A DNA stretch of 64,000 nucleotides, taken from positions 25,533-89,532 of the forward strand of contig DATDQB010000023.1 of the NCBI GenBank assembly GCA_035292445.1, given 5' to 3'. Made by a program: the position numbers and the translations under genes. This DNA is from Candidatus Omnitrophota bacterium (GTDB lineage Bacteria > Omnitrophota > Gorgyraeia > Zapsychrales > Zapsychraceae). The notes under the pieces were generated by a model. That model had not been told where the DNA came from and did not search any database. It saw nothing but the letters and a program-made list of their open reading frames with translations. Positions 12,909 to 64,000 of this stretch are shown piece by piece. How positions within the stretch are numbered: position 1 is the first letter of the stretch; every line of letters starts with the position of its first letter.

Positions 12909-13469
12909 GTGAAGGATAAAACGAAACAAGACCTTAGAGAGAGGATATTAACCCTTTTAAGGAATCAGAAGGAGGAAGAGCGGATCAAGAAAAGCTTATC
13001 GATCAAAGACAAGCTTTTTAAGACGAAGCTCATTCAGGAAGCAAAGACGATCCTTTTTTATGCGTCATTTGACGGGGAAGTTGATACATTTGAAATGATA
13101 AGACAAGCCAGCCAATTAGGAAAAAGAATCGGGTTACCGATCATTCAAAGCAAACAAAAACAAATAATCCCTGCATTATGGGATGTTCATGAATCCTTGG
13201 TAGAAGGGCCGTACGGCATAAGACAACCGCAAAACCATCCAACGAAACGATTTTCGATGGAAGAACTGGATGCCGTGATAGTTCCCGGAGTCGCTTTTGA
13301 TAGAAATAATCATCGTCTCGGGCGCGGCGGCGGCTATTATGACCGTTTTTTAGCTGTTTTACCCAAGGAAATTCCTACCATTGGCTTGGCTTTTGATTTT
13401 CAATGCATCGATTCTATCCCCGGCTTGGGTGATCACGATGTGCGCCTTTCGCGCGTTGTGACGAATTAA
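12909..13469 (+). CDS. 5-formyltetrahydrofolate cyclo-ligase (MTHFS)
   Basis: GRGGGYYDRFL motif near the C-terminus. GTG start. Confidence 0.75.
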   Translation: MKDKTKQDLRERILTLLRNQKEEERIKKSLSIKDKLFKTKLIQEAKTILFYASFDGEVDTFEMIRQASQLGKRIGLPIIQSKQKQIIPALWDVHESLVEGPYGIRQPQNHPTKRFSMEELDAVIVPGVAFDRNNHRLGRGGGYYDRFLAVLPKEIPTIGLAFDFQCIDSIPGLGDHDVRLSRVVTN

Positions 13470-13542
13470 TCACCCGCTTCCTCCTTCCCAAATAACTAAT
13501 TTATAAGACACAGTCTTGTTATTGATAGAGAGGAGTTTTGTG

Positions 13543-15120
13543 ATGAATCCCGAAATGAACATATATGTTCAAAGTACCATTCTTTCCATTTTTGCCATCG
13601 TGATCTTCTTTGCCGGCTATCTTTTAAGGTGGTTTTTCGCTGGTAAGAAATTAAAAGAGGCCGAAGAAAAAGCCAAGGCGTTGCTCTCCGGCGCCGAGAA
13701 AGAGACTGAGACAAAGAAGAAAGAAATCGAACTTCAAAGCAAGGACATGATGATCAAGCTGCGCCAGGATTTTGAGCGTGAAACCAAAGAGCGCCGCGAA
13801 GAGCTCCTGGCCGCGGAGAAACGCATCCTCCAAAAGGAAGAGAACCTGGATAAGCGGGTCGATCTTTTGGAGAAAAAAGAAAAGGACATCAATCAGCGTT
13901 TAGGGATTTTACAGGAGAATGAAGAGAGCATAAAGAAGAAAACAGAGGAGTTAACCCGCCTCATTGCTGAAGAAAAAGTGCGTCTTCAAAAGATATCCTC
14001 TTTGTCGGAAGAGCAGGCTAAGAATTTGCTTTTATCCCGTCTCGATGAAGAATTGGTGCACGAAAAGGCGGTACGCATTAAAAGGGCAGAGGATGAAATA
14101 AAAGATACGGGCGACAAGCGAGCCAGAGAAATTGTTTCGGTGGCCATTCAGCGCTGCGCCTCCGAGCATACGGCCGGCACAACAGTTTCGGTCGTTATGC
14201 TTCCCAATGACGAGATGAAAGGGCGCATTATCGGCCGCGAGGGCCGTAATATCCGCGCTTTGGAGGCGGCCGCCGGCGTTGATATCATTATCGATGATAC
14301 TCCCGAGGCAGTTACGATTTCAGGTTTTGATATGTACCGGCGGGAAATTGCCCGCATCGCATTGGAAAACCTTATTTCCGATGGGCGCATCCATCCCGGG
14401 CGAATCGAAGAGGTCGTGGAGAAGGCCAAGAAAGAGCTGGAAAACATTATTAAGGAAGAAGGGGAGAAGACGGCGTTTGATCTGGGTATCCATGGCATGC
14501 ATACCGAGCTTTTGAAGCTGGTTGGGAAATTAAAATTCAGGACCAGCTACGGCCAAAACGGTTTGGCGCACACCAAAGAGGTGGCGATTCTTTGCGGGAC
14601 GATGGCGAGCCTATTGGGCTTGGACTCAAAGATCGCCATGCGCGCCGGCTTGCTTCATGACATCGGTAAAGTTGTCAGCCAAGATGTGGAAGAAGGCACG
14701 CACGCCATTGTCGGAGGCACACTAAGCCGTAAATACGGCGAGCGTGAAGAAGTGGCGAATGCGGTCGAGTCGCATCATGAGGAAGTGGAGATGGCCTCCA
14801 TCTATGGGGCTCTTTTATGCGCGGCGGATGCCATCAGCGCCTCCCGTCCCGGAGCCCGCGCGGAAACGCTTGAGACGTACGTGAAGCGGTTGGAAAATCT
14901 GGAGAAGATAGCCAACTCGTTCAAAGGCATCAGTAAAACGTACGCTTTACAGGCCGGCCGCGAGATCCGTATTTTGGTTGACCCGGATAAGATTAACGAT
15001 GATGAGTCTGTTGTTCTGGCCCGCGATATCCGGCAGAAAATCGAAGAGGAAATGGAATATCCGGGACAGATCAAGGTGATTGTTGTTCGGGAAAAACGGG
15101 CCGTGGAGTTTGCCAAATAA
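13543..15120 (+). CDS. rny: Ribonuclease Y (N-terminal TM, KH and HD domains)
   Basis: N-terminal hydrophobic helix, coiled-coil, KH region (GRIIGREGRNIRALE), HD motif (HDIGK). AGAGGAG SD before the ATG at 13543. Confidence 0.85.
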   Translation: MNPEMNIYVQSTILSIFAIVIFFAGYLLRWFFAGKKLKEAEEKAKALLSGAEKETETKKKEIELQSKDMMIKLRQDFERETKERREELLAAEKRILQKEENLDKRVDLLEKKEKDINQRLGILQENEESIKKKTEELTRLIAEEKVRLQKISSLSEEQAKNLLLSRLDEELVHEKAVRIKRAEDEIKDTGDKRAREIVSVAIQRCASEHTAGTTVSVVMLPNDEMKGRIIGREGRNIRALEAAAGVDIIIDDTPEAVTISGFDMYRREIARIALENLISDGRIHPGRIEEVVEKAKKELENIIKEEGEKTAFDLGIHGMHTELLKLVGKLKFRTSYGQNGLAHTKEVAILCGTMASLLGLDSKIAMRAGLLHDIGKVVSQDVEEGTHAIVGGTLSRKYGEREEVANAVESHHEEVEMASIYGALLCAADAISASRPGARAETLETYVKRLENLEKIANSFKGISKTYALQAGREIRILVDPDKINDDESVVLARDIRQKIEEEMEYPGQIKVIVVREKRAVEFAK

Positions 15121-15122
15121 AC

Positions 15123-15935
15123 ATGAAGATTCTTTGCATTGGAGACATTGTTGGCAAACCCGGCCGAGCAGCCGTAGAGGGGCTGCTAGATAAGCTCAAG
15201 AAGAAATACGATATTGAGTTTGTCGTGGCCAACGCCGAAAATACCGCCGGCGGAGCAGGCTTGACGTCGCGGCTAGCGAAGGTGCTTTTTCGGGCCGGTT
15301 GCGATGTCCTGACGTTAGGGGATCATGTCTGGGACCAAAAGGAACTGGAGCAGTATTTAAATACAACCGATAAAGTCATCCGTCCTGCCAATTTCCCCTC
15401 AGGTGTTCCGGGACGCGGCTGGTGTGTCCATGCGACACCATCAGGTCACAAGGTGGGCGTCATCAATCTTTTAGGCCGCGTTTTTATGCGCCACAACGTG
15501 GAATCCCCTTTTATGACCCTTAAGGAAATTGTTAAGCAGATCAAGAAAGAAACACCTATCATTATTGTCGATTTTCACGCGGAGACAACAAGTGAAAAGG
15601 TCGCCATGGGCCATTTTATTGACGGGGAAGTTTCCGCCATTGTCGGCACGCATACCCACATCACCACCAGCGATGAAAAAATCCTTCCCAAGAAGACGGC
15701 TTATATCACCGATCTGGGCATGACAGGGCCGTATGATTCCGTCATCGGGCAGGATAAAGAGGCGATCATCCAGCGGTTCTTAACCAGCATGCCGGTCAAA
15801 TTTCATGTGGCCTCGGGCAATGTCGAGCTGCACGGCGCCGTGATCGATGTCGATGCCAAAAGCGGAAAGGCCGATTCCATCGAGCGGATCAGCTGCCCTT
15901 TCGAATTTGATGAGAAAAAAGCCTCATCCGACTAA
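15123..15935 (+). CDS. ymdB: YmdB-family metallophosphoesterase (2',3'-cyclic nucleotide phosphodiesterase)
   Basis: MKILCIGDIVGKPGR N-terminus with GDHVWD and GTHTH motifs. Conserved rny-ymdB pairing. Confidence 0.8.
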   Translation: MKILCIGDIVGKPGRAAVEGLLDKLKKKYDIEFVVANAENTAGGAGLTSRLAKVLFRAGCDVLTLGDHVWDQKELEQYLNTTDKVIRPANFPSGVPGRGWCVHATPSGHKVGVINLLGRVFMRHNVESPFMTLKEIVKQIKKETPIIIVDFHAETTSEKVAMGHFIDGEVSAIVGTHTHITTSDEKILPKKTAYITDLGMTGPYDSVIGQDKEAIIQRFLTSMPVKFHVASGNVELHGAVIDVDAKSGKADSIERISCPFEFDEKKASSD

Positions 15936-16018
15936 AATGCAGATAAGCCCTTGTCGGGCGAGTTTTCATATATTATAATTTTGGAAGCTAAGGGAATAAT
16001 CAGCCAAAGGAGCCCGGC

Positions 16019-16414
16019 ATGAGTCAATGGGATGGATTAAACAGGCGCCGCTTTCCGCGAGTTAAATTTCCCTGTTTGGTTGTGATTCATCAGAAAGAAG
16101 GCGACAGTAAAGAAACGATTCTTTGCCATACAGAGAATGTCGGCGTGGGCGGAACATGCATCATCATAAAGCAGCATGTTAAATTGTTTGCCCCGGTTGA
16201 TATTGAGCTTGATTTGATGGACATGAAAGAACACGTTAAATGCAAGGGCAAGGTCGTCTGGAACATCCGCCGCAGGAAGGAAACCGACAATAAGCCCTTG
16301 TTTTACGATATCGGCATCGAGTTCGTTGACATCAAGCCGGCAGATCATAAGCGGATAGAGGACGTTATCATTAAATTAGTTAAAGAAAAAAAGGACTCAT
16401 CCTACATCGTTTAA
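16019..16414 (+). CDS. PilZ-domain (c-di-GMP-binding) protein
   Basis: RRRFPR (RxxxR-like) and NVGVGG (D/NxSxGG-like) motifs; 131 aa. Confidence 0.55.
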   Translation: MSQWDGLNRRRFPRVKFPCLVVIHQKEGDSKETILCHTENVGVGGTCIIIKQHVKLFAPVDIELDLMDMKEHVKCKGKVVWNIRRRKETDNKPLFYDIGIEFVDIKPADHKRIEDVIIKLVKEKKDSSYIV

Positions 16415-16466
16415 CCAAGGCTCACCAACGCGCTGTCAGTCAGCTCCTCATAACGAATTATAAACC

Positions 16467-17735
16467 ATGATAAGAGTCAGATTCGCCCCCAGCCCAACAG
16501 GATATCTTCATATCGGCGGCGCACGAACGGCATTGTTTAATTGGATGTATGCCCGCTCCCAAAACGGGACGTTCATCCTTCGTATCGAAGATACGGACCA
16601 GCAGCGCTCCAAAAAAGAATTTGAGGAAGAAATTTTAACCAGCATGAAATGGCTGGGGCTCCTCTGGGATGAGCTATATCATCAAAGCGAGCGCTTCGAT
16701 GTTTACCGCCAATACGCGGATAAGCTCATCCAGGAAGACAAGGCTTATAAAGACGGCGAAGCCGTCATCCTTAAAATACCCCAACAAGAGATCAAACTGT
16801 TTGATCTGATCAGAGGCGAGATCGCCTTCGATTCGGCCACCATCAAGGATCAGGTCTTGATAAAATCCGATGGCTCCCCGACTTATAGTTTCGCTTGTGT
16901 CGTTGACGATGCCCTTATGGAGATCTCCCACGTGATCCGCGGGGAAGACCACATTTCCAATACGCCCAAGCAGATGATGATCTATCAGGCGCTGGGCCTA
17001 AAAGCGCCGAAATACGCACACCTTCCTCTGATCATGGGCGAGGAAGGCCGTCTCTCCAAAAGGACGGGGGCGGTAGCGGTGAGCGACTATAAGAAAGAAG
17101 GATTCTTACCCGAGGCGCTGGTCAACTACCTCATGCTTCTGGGCTGGTCGCCCGGTGGCAACCAGGAGGTCGTTGATATAAAGACGGCATTAAAGAATTT
17201 TTCCATCAAGAAGGTCAATAAGGCCGCGGCCATCTTTTCCATGGAAAAGCTGGAATGGATCAACGGCCAGTACATCAAAAAAATGGATGATGAAAAATTG
17301 GTGGAAGCGCTCATACCCTTTTTAAAGGACAAAAATTATATTAATGGGAATTTTGATAGAAAACGCCTTAAAAATATAGTAAAACTATTTAAAGGAAGAT
17401 TGTCGACATTGACCGACTTTCTGGAATGGGCGGATTTTGTTTTTGTCGATGAAGTCAAGCCGGATGAAGCCGCCAGAAAAGAGCATTTGTCGGTTAATCG
17501 TGCCAAAGAATTCGAGCTGTTAAGGAAGCGTTTTGCGGCGTTGGATCCTTTTGATGCCCAATCGATCGAGGCAGCCTTTCGGGAGACGGTCGAGGCATTA
17601 GGTCTTAAGTCGGCGGATTTGGTTCATCCGATCCGTGTGGCTTTGACCGGGCGTGCTGTCGGGCCGGGTTTATTTGAGACAATAGAGATTTTGGGTAAAG
17701 AAAAGACTATTCAACGATTATCCAAAGCGTTTTAG
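16467..17735 (+). CDS. gltX: Glutamyl-tRNA synthetase (short form)
   Basis: HIGGARTALFNW (HIGH) and RLSKRTG (KMSKS) motifs. Confidence 0.9.
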   Translation: MIRVRFAPSPTGYLHIGGARTALFNWMYARSQNGTFILRIEDTDQQRSKKEFEEEILTSMKWLGLLWDELYHQSERFDVYRQYADKLIQEDKAYKDGEAVILKIPQQEIKLFDLIRGEIAFDSATIKDQVLIKSDGSPTYSFACVVDDALMEISHVIRGEDHISNTPKQMMIYQALGLKAPKYAHLPLIMGEEGRLSKRTGAVAVSDYKKEGFLPEALVNYLMLLGWSPGGNQEVVDIKTALKNFSIKKVNKAAAIFSMEKLEWINGQYIKKMDDEKLVEALIPFLKDKNYINGNFDRKRLKNIVKLFKGRLSTLTDFLEWADFVFVDEVKPDEAARKEHLSVNRAKEFELLRKRFAALDPFDAQSIEAAFRETVEALGLKSADLVHPIRVALTGRAVGPGLFETIEILGKEKTIQRLSKAF

Positions 17736-38334: not shown

Positions 38335-38556
38335 GTGGACTTAGCCGATAAAATAGAGAATTCCTTTATTGCCCTGCAAGATGGGGGTATTTATCGTTAT
38401 ATCATCGAAGATACCGAACGGCTTTTGATCGAAAAAGCTTTGCAAAAAACGCGGGGTAACCAGATCTTGGCGGCGCGGATACTGGGCTTGAACAGAAATA
38501 CGATAAGGACCAAAATAAAAAAGCTAAAGATCGACTTAAGGAAGTTTAAAGAATGA
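38335..38556 (+). CDS. Small Fis-type HTH DNA-binding protein (73 aa), overlaps the gltB start by 4 nt
   Basis: C-terminal motif GNQILAARILGLNRNTIRTKIKKL, typical of Fis/NtrC-family HTH. GTG start. Confidence 0.5.
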   Translation: MDLADKIENSFIALQDGGIYRYIIEDTERLLIEKALQKTRGNQILAARILGLNRNTIRTKIKKLKIDLRKFKE

Positions 38557-41500
38557 ACCTTAATTATCCAAAACAACAGGGCCTTTACCACCCGCAGTTT
38601 GAGCACGATGCCTGCGGCGTCGGCTTTGTGGCCCATTTAAAGGGCAAAAAGTCGCATGAGATCGTCCGAAACGGCATTACTATTTTGGAGAATTTAAGCC
38701 ATCGGGGCGCCTGCGGCTGTGACCCCGAAACCGGGGATGGGGCAGGCCTTTTGATCCAAATGCCGGACCAATTCTTTAGGAAAGAATGCGCCAAACTCCA
38801 TATTAAATTGCCTCCTTTGGGAGATTACGGCGTGGGGATCGTCTTTTTACCGCCGAAGATAGAAGATCGAAATGTGATCGAAGCCTGGACCGAGCATATC
38901 ATCTATGAAGAAGGGCAAAAACTTTTAGGCTGGCGCGATGTTCCTCATGACCCGACCAAGATCGGAAAAGTAGCGGCCTCCGTTAAGCCGACTTTTAAAC
39001 AGCTCATTATCGGCCGGGGCGATGGCACGGCGCGCGAGGCCTTTGACCGCAAGCTCTATGTGATCCGAAAAAGGCTTTTTAACCAGATCCAGCAATCAGT
39101 CCTTGAGCAAAAGAGCTATTATTATTTCTGCAGCCTTTCCAGCAAAACCATTGTCTACAAAGGCCAATTGATGGCCGAGCAGTTGGACCGCTTTTTCCCC
39201 GATCTGTCAGACCCGGATCTGCAGTCGGCGATCGCGATGGTCCATTCCCGATATAGCACCAATACGTTCCCTTCATGGGCGTTGGCGCATCCGTACCGCA
39301 TGCTTTGCCATAATGGAGAAATCAATACGCTTCGCGGTAACATTAATTGGATGAATGCGCGCGAAAAGCAGTTTATATCACAAGCCTTTGGAGAGGACAT
39401 TAAAAAGACCTTACCGGTGGTGGTCCCTCATGGCAGCGACTCGGCCACATTCGATAACGTTTTTGAGCTTCTGGTGTTAGCGGGCCGCCCTCTGCCGCAC
39501 GCCATCCTGATGATGATCCCCGAGGCATGGGAAGGCCATGAAAGCATGCCGGCGGAGAAAAAAGCTTTTTATGAATATCACGCCTGCCTGATGGAGCCGT
39601 GGGACGGGCCGGCATCGATCGCTTTTAGCGACGGAAGATATATAGGCGCCGTTTTGGACCGCAACGGCTTGCGCCCTTCCCGATACCTTGTCACGAAAGA
39701 TGATCTGGTGGTGATGGCCTCTGAAACCGGCGTCTTGCCGATCCCCGCTGATCGCATCAAGATGAAATGGCGGCTTCAGCCCGGGAAGATGTTTCTCGTT
39801 GATACCGAGGCCGGCCGTATCATTGACGATGAGGAAGTCAAACGCGAATACGCGACAAAAAAACCCTACGCGCAGTGGATCAAAGAGCAAATGATCGACT
39901 TAAGCGAGCTGCCCGAGCCCAAAAATGTTCACGGGTTGGATGAAAAAACTCTTTTGGCCCGCCAGCGTGCTTTTGGGTACACGATCGAAGACATTAAGCT
40001 TCTTTTAGAGCCGATGGCCACTCAAGGGGCGGAAGCGACCGGATCCATGGGGGATGACACGCCCCTGGCCGTCCTTTCCCGTAAGCCGCGGCTTCTTTAC
40101 GATTATTTCAAGCAATTGTTTGCGCAGGTGACCAATCCGCCGGTGGATGCCATCCGCGAGGAGGTCATCATGGCGGAGAACGTCCATCTCGGGCCCGAAG
40201 GCAATTTGTTGGATGAAACGCCGGAGCATGCCCATCGGCTGCGCATTCCGCGGCCCATCATCGCCAACGAAGAGCTGGAAAAAATTGCGCATGTGAAGAA
40301 AGGCGCTTTAAGGGCCAAGAAATTTAAAATGCTTTTTAAGGCTGAAGACGCTCGGGCAGGCCTTGAGAAAGCGCTGGAAGAATTATTCCTCGAGGTGGAT
40401 GCGGCTATCGAAAAGGGGTATTCGGTCATTGTCTTATCCGACCGGGGGGTCAATAAAAAGAATATCCCCATGCCCAGCGCGCTGGCCTGTTCGGGGCTGC
40501 ATCATCATTTGATCCGCCGGGGAACAAGAACAAAGGTGAGCCTTGTGCTTGAAACGGGCGAGGCGCGGGAAATGCATCATTTTGCCGTGCTGATCGGTTA
40601 CGGGGCGAACGCCATCAATCCGTATCTGGCCCTTGAAACCATTGAAAGCGAGATCAGAAAAGGCGATTACAAAAACATTCTGTTCAAAGACGCCAAGAAG
40701 AACTATATAAAATCGACTCGTAAAGGGCTATTCAAAGTTATTTCCAAAATGGGGATCTCGACGATTCATTCCTACTGCGGGGCCCAAATTTTTGAGGCGG
40801 TGGGCTTGGGCCAGGTGCTCATTAATAAATATTTTACAGCCACCCCTTCGCGTATCGGCGGTATCGGGATTGAAGAAGTGGCGGAAGAAATGATCCGCCG
40901 GCACCAGGACGCGTATCCGCAAGAAAATAGGTATGATAACATGCTCGATCAAGGTGGGTTCTACGCGTGGCGCCGCGACGGGGAGCACCATCAGCTCAAC
41001 CCGCAGACGATCGGTATGCTGCAGCATGCGGTGCGAAGCAATAACTATGAGCTATATAAGCAATTCGCCAAGTTGGTCAACAACCAACAAACGAACCTTG
41101 CCACCATTCGCGGGCTTTTGAAATTCAAGCAAGGCAATCCCATTCCTATCGAAGAGGTCGAGCCGGCAACTGAAATCGTCAAGCGTTTTGCAACGGGCGC
41201 GATGAGTTACGGCTCAATTTCCAAAGAAACACACGAAACGCTCGCCATTGCGATGAACCGGATGGGAGGTTTTTCCAATACCGGCGAGGGTGGCGAGGAT
41301 CCGGAGCGGTTCAAGAAAGACCCTAACGGCGATTGGCGGCGAAGCCGCATTAAACAAGTGGCCGCGGGCCGTTTTGGGGTAACGATTGAATATCTTGTTA
41401 ATGCCGATCAAATGCAAATAAAAATGGCGCAGGGGGCCAAGCCGGGCGAGGGCGGCCAACTTCCGGGCTATAAGGTCAGCAAAGAAATTGCCAAAACGCG

Positions 41501-43094
41501 CTATACAACTCCAGGCGTGGGTTTGATTTCTCCTCCGCCGCATCATGACATTTATTCCATCGAAGATTTGGCCCAATTGATCCATGATCTGAAAAACGCG
41601 AATCCCCGAGGGGACGTGAGCGTTAAACTGGTGGCGGAAATCGGCGTGGGGACCATTGCCGCCGGCGTTTCCAAAGGAAAATCCGATCATGTTTTGATCA
41701 GCGGTTATGAGGGCGGAACGGGTGCTTCTCCGCAAACCTCCATCAAGCATGCGGGCCTTCCCATGGAATTAGGCATCGCGGAAACACAGCAAGTGCTGGT
41801 GATGAATGATTTACGCGGGCGCATCCGCGTGCAAACCGACGGCCAATTAAAAACTGGCCGCGACGTGGCGATCGCCGCCATGTTGGGCGCGGATGAGTTT
41901 GGTTTCTCAACGGTCGCGTTGGTGACGCTGGGCTGCATCCTGCTTCGTAAATGCCATTTGAATACCTGCTCGGTCGGGATCGCTACCCAAGACCCGGAAT
42001 TACGCAAAAGATTCGACGGAAAACCGGAGTATGTTGTCAATTTATTTACCTTTGTCGCCGAAGAGGTCCGTGAAATCATGGCCCAATTGGGTTTTAGAAA
42101 ATTTGAGGATATGGTCGGCCGCGTGGATATGCTCGAAACGGCTGTTTTGATCGATCATTGGAAAGCCAAGGGATTGGATCTAACCAGCGTTTTACACAAG
42201 CCCGATGTGCCTGATTATGTAGCTATTCATCATGTGGGTAAACAAGACCACGGCCTTGAAAAGGCGTTGGATAATAAGCTCATCGAAGCCTGTAAGGCCG
42301 CTATTGAAAATAAATCGTATACCAAGTTCGATTGCGAGATAAAAAACACCAACCGCACCGTCGGCACGATGTTAAGCAGTGAAATCGCCCGGCGTTACGG
42401 GCTGGCCGGGCTGCCGGATAACACGATCGATATCAGGTTCCATGGTTCCGCAGGACAAAGCTTTGGCGCTTTTCTTGCCAAGGGTGTTACCTTTACGCTG
42501 GAAGGCGATGCGAACGATTATGTCGGTAAAGGTTTATCCGGCGGGAAACTTATCATTTATCCGCCGAAGACGGCCCCTTTTGTTCCCGAAGAAAATATTT
42601 TAATCGGCAATGTCGTGTTGTATGGCGCGATCATGGGGGAAACGTATTTCCGTGGCATCGCGGGCGAGAGGTTTTGCGTGCGTAATAGCGGCGCTTGTGC
42701 GGTCATCGAAGGATTGGGAGACCACGGTTGTGAGTATATGACCGGCGGGCGCGTGGTGGTCCTGGGGCCCGTGGGGCGCAATTTCGCCGCCGGCATGAGC
42801 GGCGGGATCGCTTATGTTTGGGACAGGCAAGGCGATTTCAAAGGCAAATGCAACATGGAAATGGTGGAGCTTTATCCGCTTGAGCGGGAAGATGATATCC
42901 AAGAGCTCCACCGGCTCGTTGAAAACCATTTACGGTATACCGGCAGTACGCAGGCCAAGAAAGTTTTGGATAACTGGAAGATGGTTTTCCCTCAATTCAT
43001 TAAGGTCTATCCGACCGATTATCGTCGGGTGATCGAAGAGGCCAACAAGATCCAAAAAGAAGCGCAACTCGAAAGCGCTCCTTCCAAAAAGTGA
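38553..43094 (+). CDS. gltB: Glutamate synthase (GOGAT) large subunit
   Basis: N-terminal Ntn amidotransferase Cys (HDACGVGFVA), FMN/3Fe-4S central domain, GXGXG C-terminal domain; 1513 aa. Confidence 0.9.
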   Translation: MNLNYPKQQGLYHPQFEHDACGVGFVAHLKGKKSHEIVRNGITILENLSHRGACGCDPETGDGAGLLIQMPDQFFRKECAKLHIKLPPLGDYGVGIVFLPPKIEDRNVIEAWTEHIIYEEGQKLLGWRDVPHDPTKIGKVAASVKPTFKQLIIGRGDGTAREAFDRKLYVIRKRLFNQIQQSVLEQKSYYYFCSLSSKTIVYKGQLMAEQLDRFFPDLSDPDLQSAIAMVHSRYSTNTFPSWALAHPYRMLCHNGEINTLRGNINWMNAREKQFISQAFGEDIKKTLPVVVPHGSDSATFDNVFELLVLAGRPLPHAILMMIPEAWEGHESMPAEKKAFYEYHACLMEPWDGPASIAFSDGRYIGAVLDRNGLRPSRYLVTKDDLVVMASETGVLPIPADRIKMKWRLQPGKMFLVDTEAGRIIDDEEVKREYATKKPYAQWIKEQMIDLSELPEPKNVHGLDEKTLLARQRAFGYTIEDIKLLLEPMATQGAEATGSMGDDTPLAVLSRKPRLLYDYFKQLFAQVTNPPVDAIREEVIMAENVHLGPEGNLLDETPEHAHRLRIPRPIIANEELEKIAHVKKGALRAKKFKMLFKAEDARAGLEKALEELFLEVDAAIEKGYSVIVLSDRGVNKKNIPMPSALACSGLHHHLIRRGTRTKVSLVLETGEAREMHHFAVLIGYGANAINPYLALETIESEIRKGDYKNILFKDAKKNYIKSTRKGLFKVISKMGISTIHSYCGAQIFEAVGLGQVLINKYFTATPSRIGGIGIEEVAEEMIRRHQDAYPQENRYDNMLDQGGFYAWRRDGEHHQLNPQTIGMLQHAVRSNNYELYKQFAKLVNNQQTNLATIRGLLKFKQGNPIPIEEVEPATEIVKRFATGAMSYGSISKETHETLAIAMNRMGGFSNTGEGGEDPERFKKDPNGDWRRSRIKQVAAGRFGVTIEYLVNADQMQIKMAQGAKPGEGGQLPGYKVSKEIAKTRYTTPGVGLISPPPHHDIYSIEDLAQLIHDLKNANPRGDVSVKLVAEIGVGTIAAGVSKGKSDHVLISGYEGGTGASPQTSIKHAGLPMELGIAETQQVLVMNDLRGRIRVQTDGQLKTGRDVAIAAMLGADEFGFSTVALVTLGCILLRKCHLNTCSVGIATQDPELRKRFDGKPEYVVNLFTFVAEEVREIMAQLGFRKFEDMVGRVDMLETAVLIDHWKAKGLDLTSVLHKPDVPDYVAIHHVGKQDHGLEKALDNKLIEACKAAIENKSYTKFDCEIKNTNRTVGTMLSSEIARRYGLAGLPDNTIDIRFHGSAGQSFGAFLAKGVTFTLEGDANDYVGKGLSGGKLIIYPPKTAPFVPEENILIGNVVLYGAIMGETYFRGIAGERFCVRNSGACAVIEGLGDHGCEYMTGGRVVVLGPVGRNFAAGMSGGIAYVWDRQGDFKGKCNMEMVELYPLEREDDIQELHRLVENHLRYTGSTQAKKVLDNWKMVFPQFIKVYPTDYRRVIEEANKIQKEAQLESAPSKK

Positions 43095-59215: not shown

Positions 59216-59335
59216 TTTTTAGTTATAAATATTAATAAAAAATACTCTTTATTGCCCAAGAAATACCTACATGTTATATTTAAATAAAGTTGTCCCGGCT
59301 TGAGCAAGCCATTGGGACAGCATCCATTTTCCATC

Positions 59336-61366
59336 ATGAGAATACATCCAAAATTCACTTCCCGCAACGCCCAGGCCGCCTTGGAGTATATGCTTCTTTT
59401 AGCGGTTGTTGTGGCCATTGTGCTGGTCGGGCTACAAAATAAACTACCCCGGGCCAACCGTGCGACAGAACAGTATTTCAATGAAACGGCCAATATCATT
59501 ATGGGGCAAAACCCATCGAGCTCTTGTACAACGGGGGGCTGGACAGCTTGGACCGCCTGTAGCCTTCTTTGCGGATCCGGAGGAACGCAAACAAGAACGT
59601 GTACGGATACCTGCGGCAGCGGCTGCGCCCCGGATCAATACGGGTCTATCACTTCAAGGCCTTGTAATCAATTCCCTTGCCCGCCGGTTGATTGCCAGTG
59701 GGATCCGGCAGGATGGTCCGCCTGCCCTGCCTGCGTGAATCCGGGGCAACTCCCTACGCAGACAAGGCAATGTATATGTCCTCCTGCGCCTGTCGGGCAA
59801 AATTGTATAGGAGCGGCTTCACGAAACTGCAACTTTAATCTTTGTCCGACGCCGACGTGCGTGTGGGATCCTTGGTCGGCCTGTTCGCTTCCCTGCGGCG
59901 GCGGGGTTCAAACAAGGACATGTACTTGCCCGCCGGGTGTGCCTCCGGGGTCATACTGTCCCGCTGACGGCAACGGTCTGAGTTTAACCAGAGCGTGCAA
60001 TACACAAGGCTGTGATTGTTTGCCAACATCCGCTTCACCTACCTGTGGAGGACCCGTCACGATTCCGGCCAATAATCAGCCTGTTTCCAGCGGCTCGGTC
60101 GTTCAGGTTGCTTGTGGGACGGGGTGTCTGGGGTTTGTAACCTTTGCTTGCAATAGTGGCTTCTGGAATTTTGTCAGTGAGACGTGTACCGTTTCCTGCG
60201 GCAACAATGTCTGCGATGTGTCTGCGGGAGAGAATTCGACCAACTGTTGTCAGGATTGTCATGGGACACCGGCCTGCGGGGATACGGTTTGCTGCGCTGC
60301 CGGCGGGGAAGACCGGACAAACTGCTGTGCCGATTGTGCTAGCTGTGGAGATACTTTCTGTGACGCTCCCTGCGGGGAGAATTCGACGAATTGTTGCCAG
60401 GACTGCGGGGCGGGATGCGGCGATGGAATTTGTTGCTCGAGCGCAGAAACTAACACCAATTGTTGCGATTGCGTCAGCGTATTAACGACCGGCGACGGGC
60501 TCTGCTGCGCCAATACCGGCGAAGACGCGACCAATTCCTGCGATTGTGTCGCCGGCTTTAATTGCGGGGACGGTTTATGTTGCGCCGCAACAGGGGAAGA
60601 TATCAATACTTGTGTGGCCGATTGTTTGACTTGCCCAACTTTCGATGTCACGACGTGTGGAGGGATAGGGATGACAACCCTTCCGGCAGGCACCGCCAGC
60701 GGGACTTCCGTTAGTGTGCCCTGCGACGGCTGTTCGGGTTCTGTCACGGCTGATTGTGTTGCCGGGGGATGGACAAATATCGATGAGAGCAATTGTTGTT
60801 ACGATGGGCGCTGTTTCCAGCAGGCGGATTGTACTTCTTGTGAATCGCTTTCGTGCTGCGGGTGGTGCGATCCAAGTGATCCTAATAACCCCAGTCCAGG
60901 ATGCTGTAGTGAATTTAATTCGCCTTTAGGGACGTGCTCCGTGCCATGCATTAGCTGTTTTAGATGGGACGGAACCTGCTGTGACAGCATGAATGGGGGG
61001 AATGTCTCTGAATGTACGTTTTGCTCTGACAATGGGAATATGTATTGTACACCAACGGATTGTACGAATTTCTGTCCTAGTGCCCAAGCGGGATGTGGGG
61101 GAGGCAACGCTTGTTTATCTTTTGGGACATGTGTTGGCGGATTTTTTAATGGGGATGACTGTGTTGATCCAAATACGCCGCCGGGTTGTATTATGACACC
61201 TGGACAGGTATCCGATAGCCAATGTATGCTCAACGGCGGGACCTGCGGTGCTTGCTCTGGAGAGATTGGCCAGTTTTGTTCTGGCACGTCTTACTGTCCT
61301 TGTACGGGATGTTGTGATAGTGCTACATTTACATGCGAATTCTCCCCATCGTGTCTTCCACCCTAA
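59336..61366 (+). CDS. Large secreted Cys-rich protein: TadE/Flp-pseudopilin-like N-terminal segment, three thrombospondin type-1-like repeats, tandem CGDG-type Cys-rich repeats, C-terminal Cys-rich domain
   Basis: N-terminus RNA-QAALEYMLLLAVVVAIVLVG matches the Flp/TadE pattern (E at +5, Y at +6, hydrophobic helix). W-x-x-W-x-x-C-S-x-x-C-G-x-G motifs at three positions (WTAWTACSLLCGSGGTQTRTC and two more). Repeated CGDGxCCxxxGEDxTNCCxDC units. About 14% Cys. ATG at 59336 preferred over the TTG at 59300, which sits in a hairpin. Confidence 0.7.
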   Translation: MRIHPKFTSRNAQAALEYMLLLAVVVAIVLVGLQNKLPRANRATEQYFNETANIIMGQNPSSSCTTGGWTAWTACSLLCGSGGTQTRTCTDTCGSGCAPDQYGSITSRPCNQFPCPPVDCQWDPAGWSACPACVNPGQLPTQTRQCICPPAPVGQNCIGAASRNCNFNLCPTPTCVWDPWSACSLPCGGGVQTRTCTCPPGVPPGSYCPADGNGLSLTRACNTQGCDCLPTSASPTCGGPVTIPANNQPVSSGSVVQVACGTGCLGFVTFACNSGFWNFVSETCTVSCGNNVCDVSAGENSTNCCQDCHGTPACGDTVCCAAGGEDRTNCCADCASCGDTFCDAPCGENSTNCCQDCGAGCGDGICCSSAETNTNCCDCVSVLTTGDGLCCANTGEDATNSCDCVAGFNCGDGLCCAATGEDINTCVADCLTCPTFDVTTCGGIGMTTLPAGTASGTSVSVPCDGCSGSVTADCVAGGWTNIDESNCCYDGRCFQQADCTSCESLSCCGWCDPSDPNNPSPGCCSEFNSPLGTCSVPCISCFRWDGTCCDSMNGGNVSECTFCSDNGNMYCTPTDCTNFCPSAQAGCGGGNACLSFGTCVGGFFNGDDCVDPNTPPGCIMTPGQVSDSQCMLNGGTCGACSGEIGQFCSGTSYCPCTGCCDSATFTCEFSPSCLPP

Positions 61367-61386
61367 TTAGAATAAAATAAGTTAAT

Positions 61387-61403
61387 AAAGGTGCGACACC
61401 TTT
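61387..61403. terminator. Short hairpin (AAAGGU-GCGAC-ACCUUU) in the 57-nt gap between the convergent Cys-rich genes; possible bidirectional terminator
   Basis: Read in the sequence; no classical U-run on either side. Confidence 0.35.
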
Positions 61404-61423
61404 AGGGGGATTTCCGTCACTTT

Positions 61424-64000
61424 TTAGGGGGGATCGCACCCATGGCATGTAATATTATCACCCAGGTCCACACAGCCGGAACCATGGCTTGAGCAATAGG
61501 TACCACAACCCCATGCTTGCGCGCCGGAGCAGTTCCAGGTAAAAGTACAGCGGCAAGGATCCGATGGGTTTGATGCCATACACCCCATTCCATACGGATC
61601 TGAGCAATTACAGACGCTAGCGCAGTTGGGCTCGGTTGGCGTGCAGCCCATACAATAAGGGGAAACACCAGGGGTTCCATCAGCGCAATCCGCGTCCTTG
61701 CCGCCGCAGTAGGTATCGCAACCCCATTTCTGGGCACCTGCGCAACTCCAACTCATACTGCACCAACAATTGGGATTGCTGTTTCCTGACATGCACATTC
61801 CCATAGAAAATGGGTCGCTGCAATCACAAAGGGTATCGTTACAGTCGACTTCTGGCGGTGGTGGTGGCGGCGGCGAACACGTATTCGAGTTAAATATCCA
61901 AGAACCATTATTACACGTATAACTGCATCCTCCGGAGTACCCAATGACACAAGAACCGCTTGAACCGTTGTGAGCAGTGGCAGCAAGATAGCAATCGTTT
62001 ATGATTGTTTCTGGACAAGGATTTCCACCGCTGCACACACCGCCGCTGCAGGTCCCGCTGGCGCAGAAAGTCCCGGTTGTCCCGCAGCTGTTGCCGCAGC
62101 TGTCATTGATAGGTGTTCCGCAAGAAATGGTTGAAGGATTAGCGCATTGGCTTGAGTTAAAGCCTGTTCCGAAAGTGCCGCAGAAGGTGCCACAGATATC
62201 ATATATGGGATCCCCGCAAGCCACCGATGAAGCGCTTGGACAAGAAGGCGAACCGCAATCTTGTGGACAGTCGCATTGGTCTTCTGGAGGATCGCAATTA
62301 CCGTCAGGACAGACGGGACCGATTTGTTGACACCAACACTGGCCTGTTCCATTATCTTCCGGGCAAGGATTACCGCCAGCACTCTGGCAAAGCATACCCC
62401 CGCAACACGGCCCTGGAGTAACATTACCGCAGGTGTTTCCGAGAGAGAGACAAGGACAACTACTACACTCACCCGTATAAGGAGGGCAGGGGCCGCTGCA
62501 TGAAGGGCATACGCCGGAGCCCGTGCAATTAGTTGTACAATCTGATGAGCGTGTGTATATCACCCCACAGTTGAGCCATCCACAGGCCGTGCAAGTGAAT
62601 TCATCATCGACACAAGTGTTATTCCAGGACCAAGAGCCGTTATCGCAGGTGGCTGAACAGTTGCCTATATCCGAACAAACACCCGAAACATTTTGACCAT
62701 CACTGTAAGTGCCGGGAGGTATGGAGCATTGTGTTTCGCCACCTCCGTCGCTTACTCCCCCTGAGCAGGTCGCTGAGCACGTATTCGAGCTGGGTGTTGT
62801 CCAGCTGCCATTATCGCATGTATAACTACAGGAACCACTATATCCACTGGCGCAGCTGCCGCTTGTGTTACCGGATGCAGTGCCGCCTGTTAAGTCGCAA
62901 TTACTGATGGTTGTTGCGCCACAAGGGTCCTTAGTTTTTGAGCACATCCCACTATTTGAGCCGCCACAACTTCCATCACAGCGCCATCTCCATTCAGCCG
63001 TAGTATCCGCATAGGCTCCGTCATTGGCCGTTCCAGCCGAGCATCCATTCTGAACGGCATTGTTGCAAACTCCGTTAAGAGGCGAGCACCCCGTGCAGTA
63101 CCAGTAATCGTCATCATTACACGCTACGGCGCAGGGGCCTTGGCATCCCCCTGAAGCGGCGCAAACTGCCGCGTCCGGAGTTATGCCCTTGGTGCCGCTG
63201 GCGCAGACACGTGAGCTACAGGTGATGCCATTACACCAATTAGACCCACACGTCGCCGAACAAGATGCGTTGGAATAAGAGCCGGATAAGCTCCCATTAT
63301 TACATGTCCTGGTCTGACTGCTACAGGAGCCGCTGCAAGTTTCAGAGGCATTCAGATACGCCGTGACACTGTTACCATGAGCTATGGTTCCCCCCCAAGG
63401 TAGATTGCAGGGAGCTGAACACGTATTCGAGCTGGGTGTTGTCCAGCTGCCATTATCGCATGTATAACTACAGGATCCAGTATAGCCACTGGCGCAGCCG
63501 CCGCTTGTGCTACCGGATGCAGTAGCTAATACGTCGCAATTACCATTAACAGTTGTTGCGCTACAAGGATTCTTAGTTTTTGAACACACGCCGCTGGGTG
63601 AACAGCCAAGCCCTTGAGGAGAATCATCACAATGCCATCTCCATTCCGCAGACGTATCACCATAAACTGAATTATTAGGCGTACCTTTGGTACAGCCGTC
63701 TACCACGCTGTTATCGCATTGACCATTGTCACACACCCCACAACTTGCCTCTGCGCCCGGACAAGTGGGAGAGCCCGTACAATGGGAAACGCTACAATAT
63801 GTTTTTCCATCATCACTACAAGTTGTACAATCTGTTGCTGGGCCACCGTCGCAGCATATTAGATTGCCGCCTGACGGCGCATCCCATCCAAGGCAGCTCA
63901 AACAGGTACAGGTGCCTCCGGAAGCGGTGTAGCCGTTGATACATGTGACAGCACAATGATCGCCTCCTCCTGGACAAGAAGAAACAGCTGTTGCCGTTCT
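61424..64000 (-). CDS. Very large Cys/Gly/Ser/Thr-rich secreted modular protein (5' end beyond the window), paralogous C-terminal domain to the + strand neighbour
   Basis: Open frame continues upstream of the TTG at 63901 (CINGYTASGGTCTC...), so the gene is 5'-truncated by the window. Recurrent module C-x-x-GY(S/T)G(S/G)CSYTC(D/N)NGSW..(S/N)NTC three times, AEWRW(H/R)CD motif twice, a PPPPPPP linker. C-terminal C.C..W.C.GAQ.WGC.TYC units shared with the + strand protein; both proteins end in PP. Confidence 0.7.
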   Translation of the reverse strand, partial: RTATAVSSCPGGGDHCAVTCINGYTASGGTCTCLSCLGWDAPSGGNLICCDGGPATDCTTCSDDGKTYCSVSHCTGSPTCPGAEASCGVCDNGQCDNSVVDGCTKGTPNNSVYGDTSAEWRWHCDDSPQGLGCSPSGVCSKTKNPCSATTVNGNCDVLATASGSTSGGCASGYTGSCSYTCDNGSWTTPSSNTCSAPCNLPWGGTIAHGNSVTAYLNASETCSGSCSSQTRTCNNGSLSGSYSNASCSATCGSNWCNGITCSSRVCASGTKGITPDAAVCAASGGCQGPCAVACNDDDYWYCTGCSPLNGVCNNAVQNGCSAGTANDGAYADTTAEWRWRCDGSCGGSNSGMCSKTKDPCGATTISNCDLTGGTASGNTSGSCASGYSGSCSYTCDNGSWTTPSSNTCSATCSGGVSDGGGETQCSIPPGTYSDGQNVSGVCSDIGNCSATCDNGSWSWNNTCVDDEFTCTACGWLNCGVIYTRSSDCTTNCTGSGVCPSCSGPCPPYTGECSSCPCLSLGNTCGNVTPGPCCGGMLCQSAGGNPCPEDNGTGQCWCQQIGPVCPDGNCDPPEDQCDCPQDCGSPSCPSASSVACGDPIYDICGTFCGTFGTGFNSSQCANPSTISCGTPINDSCGNSCGTTGTFCASGTCSGGVCSGGNPCPETIINDCYLAATAHNGSSGSCVIGYSGGCSYTCNNGSWIFNSNTCSPPPPPPPEVDCNDTLCDCSDPFSMGMCMSGNSNPNCWCSMSWSCAGAQKWGCDTYCGGKDADCADGTPGVSPYCMGCTPTEPNCASVCNCSDPYGMGCMASNPSDPCRCTFTWNCSGAQAWGCGTYCSSHGSGCVDLGDNITCHGCDPP
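62779..63645 (-). repeat. Two about 220-bp near-identical direct repeat units (62779-62996 and 63421-63645, period about 642 bp) inside the Cys-rich gene; recent internal module duplication
   Basis: Long identical strings are visible in both copies (for example ACGTATTCGAGCTGGGTGTTGTCCAGCTGCCATTATCGCATGTATAACTACAGGA). A third, diverged copy of the encoded module lies near 61900-61980. Confidence 0.7.

Follow-up and report, generated by a model that had tools for sequence, protein, structure and literature searches.

A mosaic of cysteine-rich modules, probably an extracellular adhesin or fibre, in a Candidatus Omnitrophota genome

The locus and its genes

The window, meaning the whole 64,000-nt stretch of DNA that was analysed, ends inside a minus-strand gene, here called P0001. 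Its 3' part (61424..64000) is a single open frame of 2,577 nt, or 858 codons plus a stop, which closes with TAA at 61424-61426 and has no start inside the window. The original prediction took this for a 5'-truncated gene of more than 858 aa and proposed extending the contig to find the 5' end and the type of signal. The complete ORF was recovered from a 205-kb metagenome contig (L001, positions 12914-17392) belonging to a Candidatus Omnitrophota MAG. It measures 4,479 nt and encodes 1,492 aa, with the 5' 1.9 kb lying past the window end; at that length the protein is large, and the earlier label of “giant” overstated it. Over the window's final 10 kb this contig showed 0 mismatches, and the products of adjoining housekeeping genes are exactly identical to NCBI Candidatus Omnitrophota proteins HLF18955-57. 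The completed N-terminus resembles a Sec-type signal peptide (MVDQRFKKS-AFIFLLMAGWASLAFA/Q). Beyond it, no transmembrane segment was seen on reading the sequence, and none of the searched motifs for known anchoring or sorting signals matched. As expected, the protein is rich in Cys, Gly, Ser and Thr (14.2%, 14.6%, 13.9%, and 9.9% of the window fragment, which contains 122 Cys).

Facing P0001 on the plus strand is a second Cys-rich gene (59300..61366) with TSP1 repeats. Its 688-aa form depends on a TTG start, and gene callers take an ATG that gives 676 aa. The tail-to-tail arrangement was described correctly, with the plus-strand gene ending at 61366 and a spacer of 57 nt (61367-61423). Within the spacer lies an 8-bp hairpin (61386..61404, UAAAGGUG-CGA-CACCUUUA), which is followed on the minus strand by a U-rich tract and so may be a terminator for P0001. 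Its folding energy (-7.7 to -11.3 kcal/mol; z -0.9 to -1.6) is unexceptional, and a terminator scan did not call it. The plus-strand protein has a pilin-like N-terminus that matches Pfam Class_IIIsignal below the cut-off (E 0.0016). Export signals are present in both proteins, in line with the idea that both are secreted; one is of Sec type and the other a sub-threshold class III signal.

Upstream of P0001, outside the window, is a tandem paralogue of ~1,500 aa (P0002) with different module content. It has Cys-rich repeats and a TSP1 repeat in common with the plus-strand protein. When the segments were scanned alone with Pfam, TSP1 scored 30.5 bits in the plus-strand protein and 33.3 bits in P0002 (cut-off 21.6 bits), so that the locus combines modules of extracellular-matrix type. 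P0001 itself differs in lacking the W..W..C motif of TSP1 (PF00090), and Pfam matched none of the P0001 modules scanned. As a side observation, HMMER composition filters masked genuine TSP1 domains in Cys-rich proteins until segments were scanned in isolation.

A co-directional upstream gene encodes a signal peptide and matches tail-fibre/S74 families (E 1e-29), and 9 kb upstream of P0001 there is a DsbA-like gene. No other Cys-rich ORFs were found within the window; a 1,513-aa ORF at 38553-43094, for example, contains 1.2% Cys. A prophage origin was considered and rejected, as phage-family matches are limited to the upstream fibre gene, with none for P0001, P0002, or the plus-strand protein, and the flanks consist of housekeeping genes.

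Module composition of P0001 and its C-terminus

P0001 is a mosaic of ~20 modules of 45-60 aa and at least nine types, arranged like beads on a string. The part inside the window reads C-D-E-A-B-F-E-A-A'-G-H-A-Pro7-I-I from N- to C-terminus. Searches of Pfam, NCBIfam and PHROG gave no family match to any module of P0001. Hidden Markov models for A, B, and E, built from homologues in independent proteins, mapped six A, two B, and two E modules on the full protein, with domain E-values from 1e-5 to 1e-28. Four A copies are strong (E 1e-17 to 1e-19) and two weak, the B copies score about 1e-26 to 1e-28, and the two E modules score 6e-11 and 2e-22.

All modules described here are on the minus strand. 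The C-terminal part of module C (63905..64000, aa 635-666) matches P0002 at E 1.9e-30 (phmmer) and matched nothing beyond P0002 among 369 fetched proteins. Module D (63737..63904, aa 667-722, CLSCLGWD...CPGAEASCG) corresponds to aa 535-600 of the plus-strand protein. It is followed by a divergent first copy of module E (63578..63727, aa 726-775, AEWRWHC; domain E 6e-11), a module A (63416..63565, aa 780-829, CASGYTGSCSYTCDNGSW...SNTC) whose predicted fold appears Sushi/CCP-like, and a module B (63254..63409, aa 832-883, CNLPWGGTIAHGNSVTAY...NNGSLSGSY; domain E 7.5e-26). A Cys-rich linker, module F (63077..63253, aa 884-942), found only one weak phmmer match, to P0002 (E 2.6e-4). The canonical second copy of module E (62936..63076, aa 943-989, NGVCNN..NGCSAGT..DT.AEWRWRCDG..GG.NSG.C) is followed by another module A (62774..62923, aa 994-1043; domain E 2e-18) and a degenerate A-type module, A' (62612..62731, aa 1058-1097; domain E 1.2e-5).

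Region G is Cys-rich (62243..62611, aa 1098-1220), with knottin-like Cys spacing at 62330-62452 as read from the sequence; phmmer on the fetched proteins and scans of genomes and metagenomes returned no relatives. Region H (62018..62242, aa 1221-1295) has two CG.PI.D.CG..CGT.GT units and a single weak match among the fetched proteins (P0223, phmmer E 9.6e-5). The last A copy (61874..62017, aa 1296-1343; domain E 5.7e-18) abuts a heptaproline linker (61853..61873, aa 1344-1350), the poly-Pro linker noted earlier.

The repeated modules of about 100 aa that had been proposed are real: an E+A unit (AEWRW plus GYSGSCSYTCDNGSW...SNTC) is present twice, with 72/106 residues identical and z = 36 against shuffles. 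Three more A-type copies are present. The 3' half of the A copy at 62774..62923 is a 117-nt DNA repeat that is 93% identical to a copy 642 nt off, as against 72-79% identity in the adjacent E parts of the repeated units, which hints at homogenisation. At the population level, the locus had been expected to be variable and repeat-evolving, with module copy number differing among strains or bins. Six independent assemblies, each covering 961-2,577 nt of the gene, differ by 0-4 nt and have no copy-number variation of modules, and 3/3 complete copies encode 1,492 aa; the expectation does not hold for these assemblies.

Downstream of the prolines, the C-terminus consists of an internal duplication (I1, 61625-61852; I2, 61427-61624), each half with one C.C...W.C.GAQ.WGC.TYC. 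The two halves are strongly similar (z 16, with 0/1000 shuffles equal), and no relatives were found outside the gene's own population by phmmer on the fetched proteins or by genome and metagenome scans. The motif, quoted earlier with a spacing one residue short, had been assigned to the C-termini of both convergent proteins as part of a common domain of ~110 aa. It is absent from the plus-strand protein, whose sole similar string (CPSAQAGCG) aligns instead to CPGAEASCG of module D. Smith-Waterman alignment of the C-terminal 110 aa scored 59 against a shuffle mean of 58.6 (z 0.04; 468/1000 shuffles as high), and 140 aa gave 76 against 71.8 (z 0.36; 334/1000 as high). BLASTP of the two proteins likewise produced no C-terminus-to-C-terminus alignment. 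The similarity thus disappears against composition-matched shuffles, the outcome that had been named in advance as refuting a shared domain. Both proteins do end in PP, as reported, but this is not a family trait, since 3/360 relatives end in PP and 0 in CxPP.

Module D is in these comparisons the only strongly supported module common to the two proteins (BLASTP E 3e-7, 41% identity; Smith-Waterman z 10.6, with 0/300 shuffles equal). An A-like module in the plus-strand protein is weak (domain E 1e-5, score 14, in a four-protein search; pairwise z 2.5). The proposed paralogy applies to some module types, D strongly and A weakly; the two proteins are mosaics and not paralogues along their length.

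Relatives of the modules and predicted folds

Homologue, genome, and metagenome searches found no full-length P0001 orthologue outside its own population. A homologue search with the whole protein gave 686 high-scoring matches driven by a 45-aa myxobacterial Cys-rich repeat (C..TC...G..CG...D.CGG.L.CG.C, often with MYXO-CTERM), and it was repeated with the window fragment. Two copies of this repeat lie at aa 291-381, outside the window part; unlike its myxobacterial carriers, P0001 has no match to MYXO-CTERM or any other NCBIfam entry. BLASTP without composition correction aligned all the Cys-rich proteins with one another over long stretches (E 1e-20 to 1e-40); these alignments were spurious and were discarded.

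At E <= 1e-3, 1,462 cluster representatives matched the A, B, and E families, and a single protein had as many as 31 matching stretches; module B is the commonest type, being the best-matching stretch in most top matches. A, B, and E are widespread, unannotated bacterial module families that elsewhere form long tandem arrays. Examples are P0129 (B), P0163 (A), and P0131, P0132, and P0134 (E), hypothetical proteins of Bdellovibrionota, Patescibacteria, Methylomagnum, and others, whose homologous modules are 45-75% identical each, with domain E-values down to 1e-28. These arrays contain mostly one module type, in contrast to the mosaic of P0001 with its C-terminal modules, which were absent from the other sequences searched. 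Among the GTDB loci listed with B modules, 10/20 are from Bdellovibrionota and 2/20 from Patescibacteria or Absconditabacterales, counts that come from query-specific patterns and are biased. Fusion partners in relatives are extracellular domains, namely type IV pilin N-termini (six relatives have a prepilin-type N-terminus), tail-fibre S74 chaperones, TSP1, Lcl_C, fn3/LamG, fibrinogen-C, and Hint.

Structure prediction, recommended earlier on the expectation of disulfide-rich folds, gave confident AlphaFold (AF2) models for module E (pLDDT 97.7; E-only alignment) and for the A-B pair (pLDDT 92.5; an alignment of natural pairs plus A-only rows). No solved relative was found for the E model. 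For the A-B model, the top 11 Foldseek matches, with a probability of up to 0.97, comprised only factor H, FHR-2, and beta2-glycoprotein I. The A-B profile against PDB sequences reached factor H only below threshold (E 0.017), and Pfam Sushi (PF00084) matched neither isolated A or B modules at E <= 10 nor the full proteins. In its predicted structure, the A-B pair appears to resemble Sushi/CCP pairs. Strings of such modules (factor H, beta2-glycoprotein I, factor XIII B; PF00084) are extracellular and bead-like, built from disulfide-held beta modules of ~50-60 aa, as predicted for P0001. In the comparison with Sushi, module A has a near-invariant Trp close to its end. Cys numbers differ, with six in module A, four core and two optional in module B, and four in canonical Sushi, where they are invariant and bonded 1-3 and 2-4. 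P0001 also differs from Sushi strings in being bacterial and in having A and B interleaved with the unrelated E, D, F, G, H, and I.

Cysteines are gained or lost pairwise across homologues, which points to disulfides. In module B the optional Cys co-occurs with the tail Cys (160/14/61/622, odds ratio 117), and in module A columns 23 and 31 are both present or both absent (41/0/0/9); both counts draw in part on related sequences that are not independent of one another. The stability of extracellular disulfides is uncertain in anaerobes, which many Omnitrophota are.

Possible roles of the locus

Omnitrophota are uncultured, mostly ultra-small, and suspected of being host-dependent or predatory. 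We favor, with a probability of roughly 0.6, a reading of P0001 as a Sec-exported extracellular string of disulfide-stabilised beta modules that serves as an adhesin or fibre at the cell surface. The exported modules would undergo oxidation, a DsbA-like gene being present 9 kb upstream. They would then make up an extended rod or fibre that resists proteases and is located on the cell surface or close to it, and through which the cell attaches to surfaces, or to cells of a host or prey. The adhesive role is argued by association. P0001 may cooperate with the tail-fibre-like protein, its paralogue P0002, and the pilin-like TSP1 protein opposite. The best candidate for a binding or anchoring end would be the lineage-restricted I1/I2 duplication, set off by the heptaproline.

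Several alternatives were weighed against this. The modules might instead be rigid spacers in a structural envelope or matrix component, such as an S-layer-like coat, a sheath, or a biofilm scaffold. The high Gly, Ser, Thr, and Asn content, the repetitive disulfide-rich beta modules, the adjoining fibre-forming tail-fibre-like gene, and the failure of Pfam scans to recognise a ligand-binding domain would all fit, yet just two genes of this kind occur, a self-assembly domain is not apparent, and relatives carry such modules joined to pilins, Lcl_C, LamG, and fibrinogen-C, partners typical of binding proteins. A distinct C-terminal head after the Pro linker further suggests a functional tip, and we consider the structural role unlikely. 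The idea of a paralogous tail-to-tail Cys-rich pair with a common C-terminal domain, forming a variable, repeat-evolving surface locus, draws on the convergent arrangement of two Cys-rich, exported products, on module D in both, on the different modules of the tandem paralogue, and on the hint of homogenisation between two A copies. Against it stand a C-terminal similarity at the level of shuffled sequences, a motif confined to an internal duplication, the near-identity and constant length of the assembled copies, and a PP ending that relatives do not conserve, which together make it very unlikely.

That P0001 is a delivery scaffold showing a toxic or lytic C-terminal domain to a neighbouring cell is suggested by relatives P0132 and P0175, in which modules of the P0001 type precede Hint or PT-HINT domains, as is typical of polymorphic toxins; G-H-I, for which the searches returned no relatives elsewhere, would also suit a toxin tip, where this is frequent. 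However, P0001 has no Hint, pretoxin or toxin-family match, the next gene downstream is the convergent 688-aa gene rather than a small immunity-like one, and its Cys-rich, internally duplicated C-terminus is unlike known toxin domains, so that we regard a toxin function as extremely improbable. Similarly little weight attaches to a metal-binding or redox-active protein (metallothionein-like or MopE-like) without disulfide bonds. A Cys content of 14%, the joining of such modules to Cu-binding_MopE motifs in P0166, and the anaerobic life of many Omnitrophota would favor it, but the pairwise gain and loss of Cys, the confident beta-module models like disulfide-bonded CCP, the nearby DsbA-like gene, and the absence of a metal-binding family match in Pfam scans all argue the other way.

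Returning to the adhesin or fibre, adhesion roles have been proposed for large Omnitrophota surface proteins (PMC10066038), and class III signal peptide genes have been noted close to giant genes and to secretion systems (10.1101/2023.11.21.568195). The giant Omnitrophota ORFs (Archaeovorin, dockerin/TSP3 types; >20-30 kb) have phylum, proposed extracellular adhesion, and class III signal peptide association in common with the P0001 locus. P0001 differs in its length of 4.5 kb and in lacking a transmembrane anchor and dockerin, TSP3, and discoidin domains; conversely, Cys-rich, Sushi-like or TSP1 modules are not mentioned for the giant proteins (PMC10066038; 10.1101/2023.11.21.568195).

More speculatively, and with doubt prevailing, the four adjacent genes could form one composite attachment apparatus by which an ultra-small Omnitrophota cell engages a host or prey, with I1-I2 as the specificity determinant. 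Its parts, of extracellular-matrix type, would be the secreted tail-fibre-like protein with its S74 chaperone, P0001 and P0002 as two ~1,500-aa strings of Sushi-like modules, and the convergent pilin-signal protein with TSP1 repeats. If so, A, B, and E would be new adhesion-domain families enriched in predatory or epibiotic bacteria. Defining these three widespread families, which have confident predicted folds, no Pfam entry, and more than 1,400 protein clusters, would improve the annotation of “hypothetical” surface proteins. As a candidate for attachment, the P0001 locus is tractable (1.5 kaa vs. 40 kaa), and its modules occur also in Bdellovibrionota and Patescibacteria.

The complete gene and its neighborhood

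On the minus strand, translation of window positions 61424-64000 gives 858 codons without a stop, terminated by a TAA at 61424-61426. Because this frame continues past the window end, no start codon context for the encoded protein, P0001, lies inside the window. The fragment is rich in Cys (14.2%, 122 residues), Gly (14.6%), Ser (13.9%), and Thr (9.9%), and 57 nt separate its stop from the end of a convergent plus-strand ORF (59300-61366; 688 aa from a TTG), so translation and composition bear out the Cys/Gly/Ser/Thr-rich convergent frame that had been described. These two are the only ORFs in the 64-kb window with >5% Cys. The start codon of the plus-strand ORF is ambiguous (TTG at 59300, or the gene callers' ATG at 59336, giving 676 aa). 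Another very long ORF at 38553-43094 (+) is unrelated to P0001 (1,513 aa, 1.2% Cys), and its N-terminus (CGVGFVAHLKGK...) resembles the glutamate synthase large subunit.

Exact-sequence look-up of the adjacent ribulose-phosphate epimerase retrieved six assemblies. The longest, a 205-kb ENA contig (L001, L007), has 0 mismatches to the last 10 kb of the window and carries the whole gene at L001 12914-17392 (4,479 nt encoding 1,492 aa). Recovery of the start confirmed that the gene had been 5'-truncated by the window; at 1,492 aa the protein is therefore large, not “giant” as first proposed. We infer a Sec signal peptide from the n-, h-, and AXA features of its N-terminus, MVDQRFKKSAFIFLLMAGWASLAFA/QLPG. 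The CarB, PurF, and PyrG sequences encoded in the window match NCBI HLF18955-57 exactly, and those entries come from a “Candidatus Omnitrophota bacterium” MAG.

The P0001 gene sits beside that of a paralogue, in a cluster that also includes a gene for a secreted tail-fibre-like protein, and it faces the gene of a Cys-rich TSP1 protein. Along the direction of transcription, the tail-fibre-like protein (421 aa; L007 8733-9998, past the window end, same strand as P0001) is followed by P0002 and then P0001, with the plus-strand protein opposite. The 421-aa protein has a signal peptide, a match to a tail-fibre PHROG (E 1e-29), an internal duplication of ~77 aa, and a C-terminal Peptidase_S74 chaperone. 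Only 3 nt lie between the end of its gene and P0002. It is thus a “tail fibre” that is cellular and secreted, and its gene apparently forms an operon with P0002 and P0001. P0002 (L007 10001-14503) is a 1,500-aa tandem paralogue that has its N-terminal 330 aa in common with P0001, a middle block at 62% identity, and a different C-terminus; it contains a canonical TSP1 repeat, WSGWSACSVSCGGGTQTRTC (TSP_1, 33.3 bits with the segment scanned alone). Some 9 kb upstream of the cluster of Cys-rich genes, a DsbA/Thioredoxin_4 gene (L007 208-1107) possibly encodes the oxidase for the Cys-rich proteins of the locus. The N-terminus of the plus-strand protein is class-III-signal-like (archaeal or Flp-pilin-like; ...NAQAALEYMLLLAVVVAIVLVG; Pfam match E 0.0016, below cut-off). 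Its TSP1 repeats exceed the Pfam cut-off (30.5 bits) solely when the segment is scanned alone; a full-length Pfam scan reported no TSP_1, probably owing to the HMMER composition filter.

Module composition and predicted folds

P0001 is a mosaic of small Cys-rich beta modules. Neither the whole protein nor its isolated modules matched any Pfam, NCBIfam, or PHROG model, and modules were therefore defined from homologues, using HMMs seeded from P0001, iterated against fetched relatives, and mapped back (domain E-values down to 1e-28). Module A (...C.SGY.GSCSY.C.NGSW......C) was located at aa 463 (weak), 508, 780, 994, 1058 (weak), and 1296 of 1,492, module B (C.LPWGG.I.HG.SVTAY...C.SQ.R.C.NG.LSGSY....C) at aa 558 and 832, module E (NG.C.N...NGCS.GT......DT...W.W.C.G..GG....C) at aa 726 and 943, and a Myxobacterial-type 45-aa repeat at aa 291 and 337, outside the window. 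The order within the window, with coordinates verified by translation, is C(part)-D-E-A-B-F-E-A-A'-G-H-A-Pro7-I1-I2. The repeated module of about 100 aa noted previously proved to be an E+A pair (aa 724-830 vs. 940-1046, 72/106 identical, z = 36). In the underlying DNA, a 117-nt direct repeat (62765-62881 and 63407-63523, 93% identical) spans the 3' half of the A copies, and the adjoining E-module copies are only 72–79% identical. Gene conversion acting locally, or tighter constraint, could account for this difference. At 62330-62452 (-), the Cys spacing C-x6-C-x7-CC-x4-C-x16-C-x-C reads like an inhibitor-cystine-knot (knottin) framework, with tighter knottin-like spacings readable in P0002 (CSDGAGCTANSQCCSNNCSGNVC).

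AlphaFold2 models built with module alignments were confident, with five short strands for module E (pLDDT 97.7) and an all-beta A-B pair (pLDDT 92.5). The top 11 Foldseek matches of the A-B model were all factor H, FHR-2, or beta2-glycoprotein I (best E 0.045, probability 0.97), and the A-B sequence profile matched factor H among PDB sequences (E 0.017). However, the Pfam Sushi model matched neither module, so the likeness of A-B to Sushi/CCP domains is taken as a resemblance in predicted fold and not as family membership.

Cysteine covariation suggests how these modules are stabilized. In module B, an optional Cys preceding the second core Cys is found together with one 3–5 residues after the last core Cys; among 857 distinct instances from the fetched relatives, 160 have both, 14 and 61 only one, and 622 neither (odds ratio 117). 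Module A Cys columns 23 and 31 are likewise present or absent together (41/0/0/9). Instances of each module are mutually related, so p-values overstate the significance, although the pattern is still clear. The module B pattern reads as a clean signature of a facultative disulfide, and the copy in the window has both optional Cys.

Comparison with the convergent protein and among assemblies

The sequence features on which the original prediction was based are real, but its distinctive claim, a C-terminal domain common to P0001 and the plus-strand protein, is wrong. Against composition-preserving shuffles (n = 1000), the last 110 aa gave a Smith-Waterman score of 59 (shuffles 58.6 ± 10.1, z 0.04, 468/1000 at least as high as the real score) and the last 140 aa a score of 76 (71.8 ± 11.6, z 0.36, 334/1000), and composition-adjusted BLASTP found no match between the two C-termini. 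The similarity thus disappears under alignment statistics, the outcome specified beforehand as counting against this claim. The GAQ.WGC.TYC motif does exist in P0001, in two internally duplicated units (I1 vs. I2, z 16), and is not common to the plus-strand protein; CPSAQAGCG, the only similar string in the latter, belongs to module D instead. The true common unit is module D (fragment aa 20-88 vs. 535-600 of the plus-strand protein, 41% identity, E 3e-7, z 10.6). Support for an A-like module in the plus-strand protein is weak: a four-protein search gave it a domain E of 1e-5 and a score of 14, and the pairwise z was only 2.5. It is P0002, rather than P0001, that has Cys-rich repeats and a TSP1 repeat in common with the plus-strand protein. 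Only 3/360 relatives end in PP and 0/360 in CxPP, so the PP ending of both proteins was treated as coincidence.

A variable, repeat-evolving locus was likewise not evidenced. All three complete P0001 copies are 1,492 aa long, differing at 3–4 residues, and the window part differs by 0–4 nucleotides over overlaps of 961–2,577 nt. No module copy-number variation was seen in the six assemblies, of which three come from ENA, two from JGI, and one from Logan; they seemingly represent one population, so between-species variation could still exist.

Relatives and possible roles

Scanned in full with HMMER, 1.84 billion cluster representatives yielded 1,462 matches at E ≤ 1e-3, of which 147 reached E ≤ 1e-30, the best stretch in most matches listed being module B (fragment 195-250) or E (fragment 302-358). 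Matching proteins reach 3,573 aa, with up to 31 matched stretches each. Some relatives are single-type arrays: B in P0129, A in P0163, and E with a terminal Hint domain in P0132. Others fuse A/B/E-type modules to extracellular domains: to Peptidase_S74 (P0201, P0210), to a type IV pilin N_methyl motif and Shufflon_N (P0206), or to Hint/PT-HINT, TSP_1, Lcl_C, fn3 with Laminin_G_3, or Fibrinogen_C; six have prepilin-type N-termini. Among 20 listed GTDB loci with close B modules, a biased sample, 10 are Bdellovibrionota, two Patescibacteria or Absconditabacterales, and the remainder Pseudomonadota or unclassified proteobacterial MAGs. Among fetched proteins, modules C, D, and F matched only P0002, region H had one weak match, and G and I had none. 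The C-terminal 395 aa had no relative in 185,579 GTDB species representatives and one identical contig, nothing else, in JGI metagenomes.

P0001 belongs with known modular disulfide-rich bacterial surface proteins, and the added value is modest: it lies in three module families that are widespread yet undescribed, two of them with a Sushi-like predicted fold. Adhesion roles have been proposed for large Omnitrophota surface proteins, and class III signal peptide genes have been noted near secretion and pilus systems (PMC10066038; 10.1101/2023.11.21.568195); the Omnitrophota literature searched, including these two sources, makes no mention of cysteine-rich, Sushi-like, or TSP1 modules. Export and oxidative folding would give an extended rod, which may mediate attachment or form an extracellular fibre. 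A structural matrix protein or a toxin scaffold is possible but less supported, as is a metal-binding protein, against which the Cys covariation in A and B speaks, favoring disulfides over metal ligation. In an attachment or fibre role, the duplicated I1-I2 domain behind the Pro7 linker would be a candidate binding or anchoring end. At the other end, the domain following the signal peptide (aa 26-110, outside the window, beginning YWCISNTSGFDIFVPTKTLTEFESFL...) has weak matches (E 6e-7 to 5e-4) near the N-termini of four B-module proteins (P0200, P0353, P0160, P0141) and may represent a conserved domain serving as head or anchor.
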